Assembly: GCF_033153115.1 (NCBI RefSeq)
Contig: NW_026889763.1
Coordinates: forward strand, 19,344,001-19,408,000
Length of the DNA stretch: 64,000 nucleotides
Reading direction: 5' to 3'
Source: Saccostrea echinata
Lineage: Eukaryota
Part shown: piece after piece, positions 16,370 to 34,359 of the stretch
Numbering within the stretch: the first letter of the stretch is position 1
Layout of the letters: each line of letters starts with the position of its first letter
Position numbers and translations under genes: made by a program
The notes under the pieces: generated by a model
What the model was told of the DNA's origin: nothing
What the model saw: the letters and a program-made list of their open reading frames with translations, nothing else
Database searches by the model: none

Positions 16370-16548
16370 AGTAGTATAAAGGGTCTAGTTGGGCGGGTCA
16401 ACTGAGTGCACTCCCCCCCCCCCCCCAGAGTTCTAAAAATAGACCTGGGGATGGGTCTAAAAATAGATAGACCTGTTCTAAAAATAGATAGACCTGGGCT
16501 GGGTCTAAAAATAGATTTTAAAATTCTAAAAAAAAATAGATAGACCCT
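16370..16548 (+). repeat. Polinton left TIR
   Basis: AGTAGTATAAAGGGTCTAGTTGGGCGGGTCAACTGAGTGCACTC(C)n..., reverse complement of 34103-34359 but with fewer internal repeat units. Confidence 0.95.
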
Positions 16549-16747
16549 AATTCTTTTATAAACTTATATTGTTTTTTGCACAGCTATACTAACTCTTACT
16601 ATAATGAGATTCATATAAAACACCAGTCATACAGACTCACGATCCAACTATTTTTTTTTTATTCATAAAACAATAATAACAAAAAGGATTTGAAATATTT
16701 ATATCATTTAAAGAACAATAATAACAAAAGTTTGACACATCTCAAAC

Positions 16748-17220
16748 TCAAATCACCTTCTCTGGATCTGGAATTAAAGGGATGCGACAATGCATGTACA
16801 CTGTATAAGTCTCTGGAAGAAGCCCTTGTCTCCTTCTATGTTCGAATTCATGAAAACAATGTTGAATTTCAAATTTCCAGCCACTTTGATGAACCATATT
16901 AATATGATCAGTTATGATCACCCATTTGTATCTTTGATAACCTTGATAACCATGTTTCCTTTCCGTAAGACAGTATTGGTCCTCTCTCTTCTCATAATCT
17001 TCAGGATCAAATTTCACTCTTTTTTCCAACCACACTTTTTTTGGTATTTTGGATTAAATATTCGATTTCTGTTATAGTAATTCAGGCTAGCTTCTTCCTC
17101 AGTTTTTATCCAATCTCCCACTTTATCACCGTTAATACACCAACGATACTGGATAGCTTCTTCCTCAATTTTTATCCATTCTCCCACTTTATCACCGTTA
17201 ATACACCAACGATACTCCAT
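16748..17220 (-). pseudogene. Polinton left-end accessory gene of unknown function (about 157 aa if a frameshift in the A-run at about 17036-17042 is repaired)
   Basis: ORFs 17014-17220 and 16748-17035 join across a homopolymer. There is a 63-bp tandem duplication (YRWCINGDKVGxWIKxEEEA x2) and an upstream TATA + TCATT module. Confidence 0.55.
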
Positions 17221-17485
17221 CTTTGTACGTCTGACTTTTTTTTCAGAATGAGAAAGTTTGTTTTTTCTCTACCTCTTTATATACCTTTTTCTCAAAATCT
17301 ATTTTTAGTCTCATCTATTTTTAGCTCTTTTAACTAGTATTATTCTCGACTATTTTTAGTCTCAACTTAATTTAATCTATTTTTAGTCTAATCTATTTTT
17401 TTTATCTCTTTGTTACTATAAATATAACAGCACCAGTGTCCTATGGAAAAAACCCCTTACCTTTGCATTAAGACTTCATCCAGGG

Positions 17486-17520
17486 TATAAATACAATCTT
17501 CTCTCCAGTTTGATTTCATT
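17486..17520 (+). promoter_or_regulatory. TATA + initiator module of the pPolB gene (one of nine such modules)
   Basis: TATAAATA at 17486, TCATT with its A at 17518, ATG at 17565. Confidence 0.6.
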
Positions 17521-17564
17521 CTGTTGTCAAAAAGTATTCAGACAGCAACACTTAAGAAAAAAAA

Positions 17565-30023: not shown

Positions 30024-30442
30024 AAATTGTTATTGTTGTTTTTATTGTTGTTTGTTTGTTGTTCTCAAAATAAAAAAAAAGAAAAAAATAATACTTGCTG
30101 TTATTCTTTCAATACGTAGAGGACTGATGACGTCACAATGAGTAGCATTTTTTCTACTGACTTGCTGTCTGTTATAAGTGTTCTATGTGATAATAAAAAT
30201 CATTATGTGTTAATAATATCTTCATAAAAATAAGAGTTCTATGTTAATAAAATGATTATGTGTAAAATAAAAAAATGAAAATTAAATTAAAAAAAAAAAT
30301 TAAAATATCTACAAAAAAAAAAAATAACAGTGACCTGGTGTTATTAGACGTTTCTATAACCAGATGTTTTTTAAAAGGTATCTTTTCGAATCATTGAAGT
30401 GGCCCTTAAAAGGACCGTTGTTGTTTTTTTTTTCTTTAGGGT

Positions 30443-31098
30443 TTACTCCCTGGGACGTCGGCCTCGCCCTCGACCCGCAAACTCCCTTCTCTCGGAGAGA
30501 GGCCTCCTAGGTGGAGGAGGAGGTGGTGATGTGGGAGGGGCAGGAACCGGTTCAGGCGCACCATACCTGCACAGGGGGCAGCCCTCATTCCGGTCAATAC
30601 GTCTGGCCGCACACAGGTAGCAGGCAGGCCTCTGTAAACATCTGCCGCACATGAAATTGGACTGCTCATCCTGACATAAACACAAGACACAGTATCCCTC
30701 CTCCACAGGCGCTTGTATCCCCCACACGGGGATACAACCCTGAAAGACCACACGGTCCTGCTCGGGTGGTGGTGCTGCGTTCAGGAGGCGGTGGACCCTT
30801 GCCGATGGTGACGAAGGGGGGGGGATTCCGGGGAATCCGCCAGGTCGAAATTCCGTCCCTCCTCTTCTGGCCGCGGATGGTATATTGTCCTGTAATCTGG
30901 TGCTGCTGGTCGTGTTCTACTATATGGGCTGTGCCTTGATCTTCTTCGGGTGGTGAAGCCGGCAAGATCAGGGACGCGAATTCTTCCTATATTCAGGACC
31001 GCATACTCTTGCCCGGTGTTTTGGTTCCTTACAATTAACTGACAGATCACCTCCACGCCTGGTTCGATGAAAATATTTTCGTGGAATAAAGAAGCCAT
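30443..31098 (-). pseudogene. GC-rich RING-finger-like accessory protein (about 218 aa if the G-run 30816-30824 gains 1 nt)
   Basis: CVLC..CGRC..CYLC..CPLCR (8 Cys) with Arg-rich and Ser/Pro-rich segments. TATA + TCATT module at 31164/31130. Confidence 0.65.
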
Positions 31099-32600
31099 CG
31101 TCGTATCGCTGAATCAGATAGCTAACGAATGACAGTTAACAGCTGACAAGCGTCGGTATTTATACACACAGCGCGAGCCGAAAAGAGAGCACCCAAAAGC
31201 CCGGATGACGAACAGCTCAAAAAATCATGGAGAATTCAAATTTGTGTTATTCTGTGTTTGTGAATACATCTATTGGAGTAAATAAGTTATTATGGAATGA
31301 TATATACTTTCAAACCCTCCAGTGAAAGAATGAAGGTAAGTTTTGAGGATGATTTCACAGTATTATTCATACATGACATTCCTCCGTTGTTTAGAACAGG
31401 CTCATTCATGTCGAACCGAAGGGCTAACCTTGACTGACCTGAACACATAAAATAAGAAGTTAAGCTATTTTAAAAGTGTGACACAAAGAAAACTTAATGT
31501 ATATAATAAGATTGAACCTAAGGAAAAGTGTTGATATGGTTTTTAAATCAAAAGAATCGTTGCAAGTGGAGAAATAAACTTAGCGTCGGTTTAGGGATAA
31601 AGACAAGGGAGGTCAAAGGACAGCCATTTTCAGAAAATCATTGTATAGACTTGTATAGAGCCTATAAGATTTTTTTTGCAATCCTGATCTTTTATGATAA
31701 AAATTTTGAAATGAATACAATCGGAAACTTATAAAAATCATTTGTATCTACTTTATTTCCAATGGGAAAGTCTACATTTTAAAAGAAAAACCCTATTCAT
31801 ACACGCAGTGTTGGTACAACAGACACCGTGTTACACACATACATTTGATTTTTGTATTGTAACCTTATGAAAATAGAATTGTGAGATCAATACAATCGGA
31901 AACTTATAAAAATCATTTGTATCTACTTTATTTCCAATGGGAAAGTGTAGATTTTATAAAAAGACCAAAAAAATCTCAGCGTCTTAAAAAGGACACAAGA
32001 TGGCGTCATACACTAATTACAATGACGTATTGTAATTCTTTTATTGCATTATTTCTTGAAGACTAACAATTGTTCAAACTGCCAAATTCTCCTTTGAAAT
32101 CTTAATCGATCCGCTACTAGAGCCATCCATTTCACTTTTCCGATCATCGGGGGTGGTAAATCGTAATTTTTTTTATTGAAACTCGTATTAAAAGTCACAC
32201 GCAAAGTTTGATTTTAGATATTAAACTATCATAGCTTTTTTAAGAGTAGGCTTAAGTTAAGTTTTTTTTTGCACAAGGTGTTTTTAAGACTCTTGAATCG
32301 GTGCCAAGATTAGGTACATGACCTGTGCAGGTGTTTTAAGAATCAGATCTCGTGCTCAATATATATTATTATAGTAACAAAAAAAAGTGAAAAAAAAAAT
32401 AGTTTTTCAGACTTGAATCGATGCCAAGATTAAGTACATGATCTGTGCAGGTGTTTTAAGAATCTCATCTCGTGCTTTTTTCTTTTTTTTTTTGCACGAG
32501 ACCCTTAAGTAAAAAAGGTATATAAACTCAGAGTTGAGTCATTTATAGCATCAGTCTTTCAGTGAATACTTGCAGAGAATAGATAGGAAGGACACAAGTA

Positions 32601-33556
32601 ATGATGAATCCTAACGATGTTTCAGAGCAGAATCTTCCAGAACTGATCAGCAGGGAAGATTTTGAATGGATAGTGAATGAGATTAAAGATCCCATTGGAT
32701 TAGATTTGGACATGTATCACATTCCAGAACCCATCACCAAGGAAGATATTTCAGCTGAGAATATTCCAGAACTAATGAGCAAGGAAGATTTGGAATGGAT
32801 AGTGAATGATGTTAAAGATTCTATTGGATTGGATTTAGGGGTCTACCTCATTCCTGAACCCATGACTAAAGAAGAGATGAGGAAAAAAGGTATGTAAACA
32901 CAAGAGTATATAGCATCTGTCTTGAGTTAGTATTTTTTTTTTGGCAGAGAATAGATATAGGACACATGCAATAATAAATCTTCATTATGTTTTCAGATGA
33001 GAATCTTCCAGAACTAATAAGCAAGGAAGATTTAGAATGGTTATTGAATGACGTTAAAGATTCTATTGGATTGGATTTAGGGGTCTACCTCATTCCTGAA
33101 CCCATGACCAAAGAAGAGATGAGGAAAAAAGGTATGTAAACACAAGAGTTCATAGCATCTGTCTTGAGTTAGTATTTTTTTTGGCAGAGAATAGATATAG
33201 GACACATGCAATAATAAATCTTCATTATGTTTTCAGATGAGACTCTTCCAGAACTAATAAGCAAGGAAGATTTAGAATGGTTATTGAATGACGTTAAAGA
33301 AGATCCCATTGAATTGGATTTGGAAATGTATAACATTCCAGAACCCATGACCAAAACAGATATGAGGATCTTGAGGAGTCAAATGAATGACATTGCTAAT
33401 TTACTGGAGGATTTTAAAACAAATAAGGACACCGCAATGTGTTTATTACAGGAAAGATTATCCAGATTAGAAGGACAAGTCACCAACCATGATAGAAAAG
33501 AACATGAGAGGCGGTTCTTACCAGAAAAGAAAAGACTCACCAGCCCTCAAAAATGA
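32601..33556 (+). CDS. Spliced acidic-repeat accessory protein (exons 32601-32889, 32997-33131, 33237-33556; 247 aa; may extend to 33800 via a frameshift)
   Basis: Two AG|GTATGT...TTTTCAG| introns (107 and 105 nt), both phase 1 and frame-restoring. Four LPELISKEDLEW..DLxxYxIPEPMTKE repeats. Confidence 0.75.
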
Positions 33557-34102
33557 GTGTATAGAGGATCAACACTTAGTGAAAACTCAGGACAAAAAGA
33601 CCCAGAAACAAAAAAAGACTGAGGAACAAAAAAAGACTCCTTTTGTGATGTTATATGATGTAGAAAAGACTCTTAACACAGTGAGTAACAAAAGAAAACT
33701 TCAGAATAGTGATATAAATGACAAACTGAAAGCGAAAATCCAAAGAAAAGATCTAAAGGATAAAGTGAAAATCCAGAAAAAAATGGACACTTTCTGGTGA
33801 ATTAGTGTTGTGATTATTAGTGTTTTAATATTTTTTTATGAATCATCTATAAATTTTTGAAATCCTTCTCATGTTTTTTTTTTGGTTTTGTACACTCTAG
33901 TGTGTGTAAAAACCTTGGTTTTCAGAAAATAGAGAAACGGTTGTGAATGACATGACGTCATAATGCATAAGTCGGTGTGAATTTGAATCCCTGCCAAGAT
34001 TATGTGTCTGTATGACTGGTGTTTTTTAAAGAATCTCATTATAGTAACAAATAGATAGCTGTGTCGAAAAAAACAACCTCTATATAAGGCTATCAAAGGA
34101 TA

Positions 34103-34359
34103 AGGGTCTATCTATTTTTTTTTTTAGAATTTTAAAATCTATTTTTTAGACCCATCCCAAGTCTATTTTTAGACCCATCCCAGGTCTAGCTATTTTTAGA
34201 CCCATCCCAGGTCTAGCTATTTTTAGACCCATTCCAGGTCTATTTTTAGACCCATCCCAGGTCTATTATTAGACCCATCCCCAGGTCTATTTTTAGAACT
34301 CTGGGGGGGGGGGGAGAGTGCACTCAGTTGACCCGCCCAACTAAACCCTTTATACTACT
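34103..34359 (-). repeat. Polinton right TIR
   Basis: Reverse complement of the left TIR, with about 6 copies of a 24-28-bp unit TCTAAAAATAGACCTGGGATGGG. Confidence 0.95.

Follow-up and report, generated by a model that had tools for sequence, protein, structure and literature searches.

A MEF2-type motif as a probable promoter element of accessory genes in a Polinton family of the oyster Saccostrea echinata

Introduction

Why does a Polinton of the oyster Saccostrea echinata carry the same ten-base word, CTAAAAATAG, again and again in both of its terminal inverted repeats (TIRs) and once more as a cluster beside its DNA polymerase gene, polB? The element occupies positions 16370-34359 of a stretch of 64,000 nucleotides (nt) (assembly GCF_033153115.1, contig NW_026889763.1, positions 19,344,001 to 19,408,000), the whole of which is referred to here as the window. 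The word fits YTA(W)4TAR, the response element of the transcription factor MEF2, and an earlier note on this DNA had proposed that one host MADS-box factor couples use of the replication origin to transcription of polB. Position, orientation, gene class and lineage distribution of the motif led us to replace this link by a promoter code for accessory genes. On balance, we favour the view that the motif stands just before the TATA boxes of accessory genes, where it would be bound by host MEF2 and turn these genes on, and that the TIR arrays of one lineage would serve as an enhancer and probably not as an origin.

Results

Exact copies of CTAAAAATAG were found on the + strand at 16433, 16457, 16478 and 16505, as four tandem units of the left TIR (16433-16514), and its reversed-strand form CTATTTTTAG at 17299, 17315, 17350, 17377, 34163, 34190, 34217, 34240 and 34287, with one variant, CTAATAATAG, at 34263. 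The counts and places given by the earlier note (four copies in the left TIR, five and a variant in the right TIR, four in the cluster at 17299) were confirmed, its ranges being off by at most one base. All 13 exact copies in the window lie within the Polinton, and 100 shuffles gave a mean of 0.46 copies and a largest value of 2. Within each TIR the copies repeat in tandem with a period of 21-27 nt, and the two TIRs are homologous to each other, so that the 13 copies correspond to about two independent places. GGGCGG (16391) and TATAAA (16375) are likewise present at the tip, as had been noted, but are kept in only 13/59 and 1/59 of the sister ends, which rules out the GC box and the TATAAA as conserved signals.

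A genome search with polB yielded 150 scored matches out of 325 candidates. Among these, 74 polB-side ends were examined and 22 copies were followed end to end as separate stretches, a chosen subset rather than a random one. Lineages were named by their ends: A (window-like), C (with a different, palindromic tip), B-long and B-short. The polB tree comprises 62 stretches, ten rows that were distant, broken or partial and two that were too short having been omitted; it was rooted at the midpoint, has rough bootstrap values and does not give the order of motif gain and loss. It splits into clades of 26 and 36 rows, both 100/100. All ten rows with a left-end motif and all 25 with a motif in the left promoter fall into the 26-row clade, and the 36-row clade has none at these places. 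Sisters of lineages A and C carry one to eight copies in the left promoter, lineage B none. Inside the element, the motif is present in all 22 whole copies (67 exact internal copies) and is in this sense kept among sister copies.

Most of the internal copies stand directly ahead of a TATA box. In the orientation CTAAAAATAG, 54 of the 67 are followed by a TATA box 9-19 nt downstream and one by a TATA box at 31 nt, the other 12 having no TATA box within 60 nt; TATA-linked copies in reverse orientation numbered 0/67, and the background was 1.2-2.1%. At least one such motif+TATA promoter occurs in every whole copy (22/22). In an unseeded count over 96 clustered contexts upstream of TATA boxes, the four commonest 8-mers were pieces of CTAAAAATAGA (13, 12, 10 and 9 clusters). 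Downstream of the TATA box, the word TCAKTY, which we take to be initiator-like, was found in 40 of the 54 motif promoters, as against a background of 3.8%.

The motif is also confined to one class of genes. It precedes 65 of 173 accessory open reading frames (ORFs) and none of 120 core ORFs; counted by family, it precedes 11/15 accessory and 0/7 core families (Fisher p = 0.004). The genes behind it include those for Cys-rich zinc-finger-like proteins and a CCHC zinc-knuckle protein, a locus with a PF10488 PP1-binding frame and three paralogs of the family designated YRW, the last standing behind the motif in every lineage. The homologous YRW promoters of lineages A and B have an identical motif and differ at 6 of the 12 spacer bases. 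Three types of promoter can be distinguished in this Polinton family, namely motif+TATA, a cAMP response element (CRE)+TATA, and TATA alone. We conclude that the motif is very probably a promoter element in this family. Two other readings of the word were ruled out. A splice acceptor on the T-rich strand would be antisense to the linked gene and would leave the TATA spacing unexplained, and the TCTA word that we take to mark late promoters of giant viruses does not fit, the preceding T being found in only 18 of 54 cases and a TATA box following.

A YRW protein was considered as a candidate for a viral binder of the motif. Searches returned no word-index homologs and no Atlas match, a profile gave 26 matches, the family had no Pfam or PDB sequence match, and a structure model (pLDDT, predicted local distance difference test, 77) gave no Foldseek match at E<=0.001 (best Z 4.0) and no known fold. 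These searches neither show nor exclude DNA binding. A second repeated promoter word, GCAGGTGTTTTAAGAAT, which contains the E-box CAGGTG, was noticed at 32330-32490 of the window and in L036, L040 and L031; two or three copies of it stand ahead of right-end genes and of the internal YRW gene. Rearranged derivatives of the element, in which kilobases of the accessory region are duplicated in inverted orientation, were also observed (L166/L380/L381, L167, L054-L056, L033-L034 and L385), some of them without core genes yet with motif+TATA promoters.

CTAAAAATAG is the 10-mer of highest affinity for MEF2B in systematic evolution of ligands by exponential enrichment (PMC7470950), and it is shifted by schistosome Mef2 (PMC3250504). 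A profile search with PF00319 revealed two MEF2 genes 50 kb apart in the host (G000:C2:12027777 and C2:12077659; L129 and L130) and one SRF gene. Over the MEF2 exon compared, the two are identical to human MEF2A at 63/67 and 57/67 positions and T20 is conserved; in one paralog most of the differences from human MEF2A lie in the half of the exon that belongs to the MEF2 domain. Every one of the 23 one-mismatch variants of the motif that are linked to a TATA box fits YTAW4TAR, compared with 37 of 74 variants without TATA, although the 23 fall on about seven sites and the copy-level p of 3e-6 overstates the difference. Judging from sequence, MEF2 is probably the binder of the motif. Of the single host MADS-box factor proposed earlier, the top MEF2 site, the host MEF2, the conservation and a role in transcription have stood, and the link to origin and polB has not.

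The four motif copies between polB and the left end of the element (17299-17386, - strand) share the orientation of a leftward accessory gene of the YRW family (17017-17220, - strand). The leftward gene has a motif copy (17299-17308) 15 nt ahead of its TATA box (17276-17283, - strand), whereas the TATA box of polB is 100 nt away from the nearest copy. The leftward gene further has the word TCATTC, presumably initiator-like, at 17244-17251 (- strand), and is broken here, with 68 amino acids (aa) in the window versus 159 in one sister. The core promoter of polB (17465-17493, + strand) consists of a CRE position and a TATA box at 17486; in sisters the CRE reads TGACGTCA, and the window copy has a degenerate form of it. 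CRE+TATA was found ahead of polB in every one of the four lineages and in 14/15 scored copies, whether the motif was present or absent. Since the motif faces the leftward gene and polB keeps its own CRE+TATA in all lineages, polB as target of the motif is not supported. A secondary effect on polB may exist in lineages A and C.

Among core genes, the TATA boxes themselves fit YTAW4TAR at the putative major capsid gene (15/16), the putative minor capsid gene (20/20) and the ATPase gene (12/12), and the listed boxes of four other core genes fall outside the MEF2 consensus. The capsid and ATPase boxes read YTATAAATAR, and match the general MEF2 consensus, not that of fly antimicrobial-peptide genes (CTATAWAAGM or CTATATAAAGC). 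These compound boxes were grouped post hoc, and TATAAATA with such flanks can occur by chance.

At the ends of the element, the motif was found within the first 400 nt in 7 of the 59 ends with a recognised tip; it is missing from the other 52, including the 36-row clade with its window-like tips. Among the 22 whole copies, TIR copies of the motif are present in 8/8 of lineage A versus 0/14 of B or C. The lineage-A arrays face inward in both TIRs, and in the window the first motif copy begins at position 64 from the tip. A core resembling GGTCAACT-AGTG is common to 54/59 ends. Wherever the two ends were determined, the 14 whole copies without TIR motif are flanked by matching 6-bp target-site duplications, and many copies of the lineages without it have long open polB frames. 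The coupling to the origin suggested by the earlier note is left unsupported by these 52 ends and 14 copies, and the motif is probably not part of the replication origin, as far as its distribution tells. The tips vary in other respects. In lineage C (L071:995-1060 and others) they form a palindrome with a variable centre, and in lineages A and B positions 7-30 differ strongly among copies, the two ends of one copy mostly agreeing.

One TIR unit is identical over 24 bp to an accessory-gene promoter in 4 of the 5 copies compared, and the TIR array and the promoter element therefore share an origin. As far as sequence can tell, the chances are about equal that the arrays raise the MEF2 input as an enhancer or that they arose by neutral slippage. 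The strongest rival explanation, which we regard as possible if tentative, holds that only the promoter copies are functional, a piece of promoter having entered the TIR of a single lineage and multiplied there by slippage as a neutral by-product. It would account for the copy number, which ranges from 1 to 7 per end and is unequal between the ends in 4/8 lineage-A copies, for the 14/22 whole copies that do without a TIR motif, and for the one-mismatch TIR variants, 5/8 of which break the consensus, four of these representing a single change present at either end of two copies. It does not readily explain why 30 different spacer strings separate unchanged 10-mers, although the search was seeded on the motif and is biased in this respect, nor the ends of lineage B. 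A GGAAAAACC-type word was found in 36/39 lineage B ends versus 0/20 other ends, a CRE in 32/39 and AP-1 words in 26/39; the factors, which we take to be Rel/NFAT-like, AP-1 and CRE-binding, are named by assumption. The lineage B words would fit a use of the ends in this family as interchangeable regulatory platforms.

In the host genome, 21,097 matches to the motif were counted versus 10,218 for the reversed control, many of them at a spacing of about 156 nt. A tandem repeat of this length occurs at many places on G000:C1 with CTAAAAATAG in each unit, and is the source of many of the genomic matches listed. A genome-wide test of orientation gave no information (428 forward matches, control 89, versus 416 reverse, control 69), because most of the reverse matches come from another repeat family. 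The search for tip plus motif was close to the control level (163 versus 121). A young long terminal repeat (LTR) retrotransposon, Gypsy-like by eye (L153:819-8668 and L154:840-8692; LTRs 99.6-100% identical, with an extra 271-aa ORF), holds one CTATTTTTAG and TGTTTAC-like words in its LTR; since the search that led to it had been made with the motif, this copy was given no weight as support.

Discussion

We propose that at accessory promoters, which with their TATA box and initiator-like word would be served by RNA polymerase II, host MEF2 binds just upstream of TBP. Binding would turn on host-modulating accessory genes without a viral factor, by activation rather than repression and early in timing; a promoter driven by the host would suit genes that are needed before any viral factor exists. 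In lineage A, where the motif has multiplied both at the TIRs and at the divergent promoter, the MEF2 input would be raised.

Several results weigh against this proposal. Homologous accessory promoters sometimes carry other upstream words, and 5 of 28 promoter pairs have flanks similar at p<0.05, where 1.4 were expected; duplication thus links some of the promoter families, which leaves few independent cases. AT-rich DNA would by itself favour the same variants that fit the consensus. The fixed orientation and spacing are tighter than expected of a MEF2 site, which is nearly palindromic, and a viral factor fits them equally. In the TIRs, only 3/8 of the one-mismatch variants fit the consensus, and the variable copy number would also result from slippage under weak selection. 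The motif is frequent in host repeats. Finally, 81 distant Polinton-like loci did not show the motif-TATA arrangement (two exact words in 395 kb, neither TATA-linked), nor did three distant Polinton copies of the same genome.

A DNA-binding protein encoded by the element itself could recognise the motif, regulate the accessory genes and bind the TIR copies in the manner of iterons or subterminal repeats. The strict polarity and spacing, the confinement of the motif to one Polinton family, the several conserved ORFs without known family and the YRW paralogs behind the motif in every lineage would agree with this. We nevertheless consider it unlikely, since the motif is the optimal MEF2 10-mer, its variants follow the MEF2 consensus and the MADS profile gave no match at any Polinton locus (four matches, all on C2).

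Still less likely is another protein of the host genome, for example a reader of AT tracts or a MADS protein encoded by a transposon. In its favour stands an unrelated TTAA-flanked foldback family with many CTA(W4)TAG words in its arms; the PF00319 search, on the other side, found nothing beyond the two MEF2 genes and SRF, and SRF prefers CC(W6)GG. The foldback elements (L157-L165, e.g. L162:321-6685) measure 5-8 kb and have no long internal ORFs, their arms of 1-1.5 kb consisting of units of about 190 bp with paired CTA(W4)TAG words 8-16 nt apart. That one factor couples protein-primed origin use to polB transcription, as NFI/Oct-1 would at the adenovirus origin, is very improbable and in its family-wide form largely refuted: the inward-facing arrays of lineage A, the motif 100-200 nt upstream of the polB TATA box in lineages A and C and the host-factor sites in adenovirus inverted terminal repeats (ITRs; PMC5717082) would suit it, but the 52 ends without motif and the separate CRE+TATA of polB do not.

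With the Polinton/Maverick and adintovirus-like elements described before (PMC8097293, PMC8502044), the oyster element has in common AGT-repeat termini, a 6-bp target-site duplication, TIRs, pPolB, an rve integrase, an A32-like ATPase and variable accessory regions. Promoter motifs are not described in the available parts of these papers (the term 'promoter' is absent from PMC8502044 and appears twice in PMC8097293, in other contexts), whereas three promoter types are distinguished in the oyster family. Nor do the parts available of PMC8097293, PMC8502044 and bioRxiv 2025.07.20.665756 mention a MEF2 or Polinton promoter motif. MEF2 sites or promoter motifs in animal Polintons were not found in the literature searched; subscription papers, Repbase notes and supplements may describe such ends.

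Compared with the MEF2 response element YTA(W)4TAR (PMC7470950, PMC3250504), the oyster motif is the exact top-affinity 10-mer and meets a near-identical DNA-binding region in the host; it differs in its fixed orientation and its TATA spacing of 9-19 nt, and binding in the oyster is predicted. The BZLF1 promoter Zp of Epstein-Barr virus combines ZI MEF2 sites with a ZII CRE/AP-1 site, similar to the MEF2-type and CRE words of the oyster element, and there MEF2 acts as a repressor during latency and as an activator in response to calcium signals (PMC8706188). The LTR of human T-cell leukemia virus type 1 has several MEF2 sites and CRE in the promoter of a persistent virus (PMC4374383). Unlike in these two viruses, the oyster motif recurs before many small accessory genes and in the TIRs, and its carrier is a Polinton of an invertebrate. 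In Drosophila, MEF2 and TBP form a complex that after infection occupies a compound TATA box in the promoters of antimicrobial-peptide genes (PMC3807682); this box, CTATAWAAGM, differs from CTATAAATAG of the oyster element, whereas the T20 is shared by oyster MEF2. Like the auxiliary sites of adenovirus ITRs (NFI, Oct-1/NFIII, Sp1 and ATF; PMC5717082), host-factor-like words (the motif and CRE/ATF) stand in the terminal repeats of a protein-primed genome. The oyster motif differs in that it is missing from most sister ends and shares its flank with an internal promoter, and it comes nearer to the Sp1/ATF transcription part than to the NFI/Oct-1 origin part. An auxiliary origin site of the adenovirus type should recur beside the core origin throughout the group; the motif, which stands in 7/59 ends, does not.

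A wider scheme, drawn by analogy and in our opinion rather unlikely as a whole, is that the Polinton life cycle is timed by host MEF2. Canonical sites would act on accessory genes, compound MEF2/TATA boxes would gate capsid and packaging genes in the manner of the MEF2-TBP switch that infection triggers in Drosophila, and the end arrays of the co-resident lineages (MEF2-type in A; Rel/NFAT-like, AP-1 and CRE in B) would answer to different cells or stimuli. The Polinton family offers a readable promoter grammar over dozens of copies, one that names a single host factor. Should MEF2 bind, the expression of these Polintons would be coupled to signalling by calcium, stress or immunity, and not to muscle alone, and insertion of lineage-A ends would scatter MEF2 enhancers through the oyster genome.

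Other features of the element and its surroundings

The element is 17,990 bp long, has AGTAGT tips and is flanked by a duplicated GTAATC (16364-16369 and 34360-34365). By its ends, polB, integrase and ATPase it is a Polinton/Maverick. The left TIR, which begins with AGTAGT, covers 16370-16640 (+ strand) and the right TIR 34010-34359 (- strand), both inner limits being approximate; the right array of five exact units and one CTAATAATAG unit lies at 34163-34296. A CRE (TGACGTCA) is located directly inside the right TIR (33953-33960).

All core genes detailed here lie on the + strand. The protein-primed polB (17565-21304) is broken into several frameshifted pieces (PF03175, E 4e-24 and 2.5e-9). 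It is followed by the packaging ATPase, also in pieces (21534-22263), which has the compound site CTATAAATAA (at 21565) as its TATA box; a sister copy matches Pox_A32 (E 1.2e-6) and the window copy gives a weak FtsK match. An rve integrase with chromodomain, in pieces, lies at 24629-25729 (PF00665, E 5.8e-10). The compound TATA/MEF2-consensus site TTATAAATAG (26240-26249) precedes the gene that we take to encode the minor capsid protein (26289-27429, in pieces). The putative major capsid gene (F54H12.2-like; 28115-29164) is truncated; its TATA box, CTATAAATAG in sisters, is missing from the window copy. The nearest named homologs of the window's capsid-like protein are F54H12.2-like proteins of rock oysters, and it is about 65-85% identical in other oysters. 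The capsid and protease candidates of window and sisters gave no Pfam match, and the labels capsid and adenain-like protease are our assumption. A search of IMG/VR found no relative of the capsid protein, the alignment giving one locus, and at least 120 matches to the motif+TATA pattern, each of them single, came from mixed contigs and were taken as chance.

Sister copies contain further genes. In lineage B, an inhibitor-of-apoptosis protein with BIR and RING domains is encoded between polB and ATPase (L141:373-915 and L147:264-890). Two long overlapping frames on the same strand were noticed at L134:2558-3111, L142:5431-5993 and L148:6372-6928; one of them ends in the PP1-binding motif PF10488 (E 8e-6 in L134), which we presume to resemble ICP34.5/GADD34. 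Small accessory ORFs with weak matches to Viral_Rep (PF02407), CRESS-Rep-like, occur at L134:142-777 and L148:1911-3291, and ORFs that look macrodomain-like by eye at L142:1784-2284. Outside the Polinton, the window holds an apparently intact Helitron (45848-52527) with a 386-aa ORF containing a Herpes_teg_N domain and a 1837-aa Rep/PIF1 helicase.

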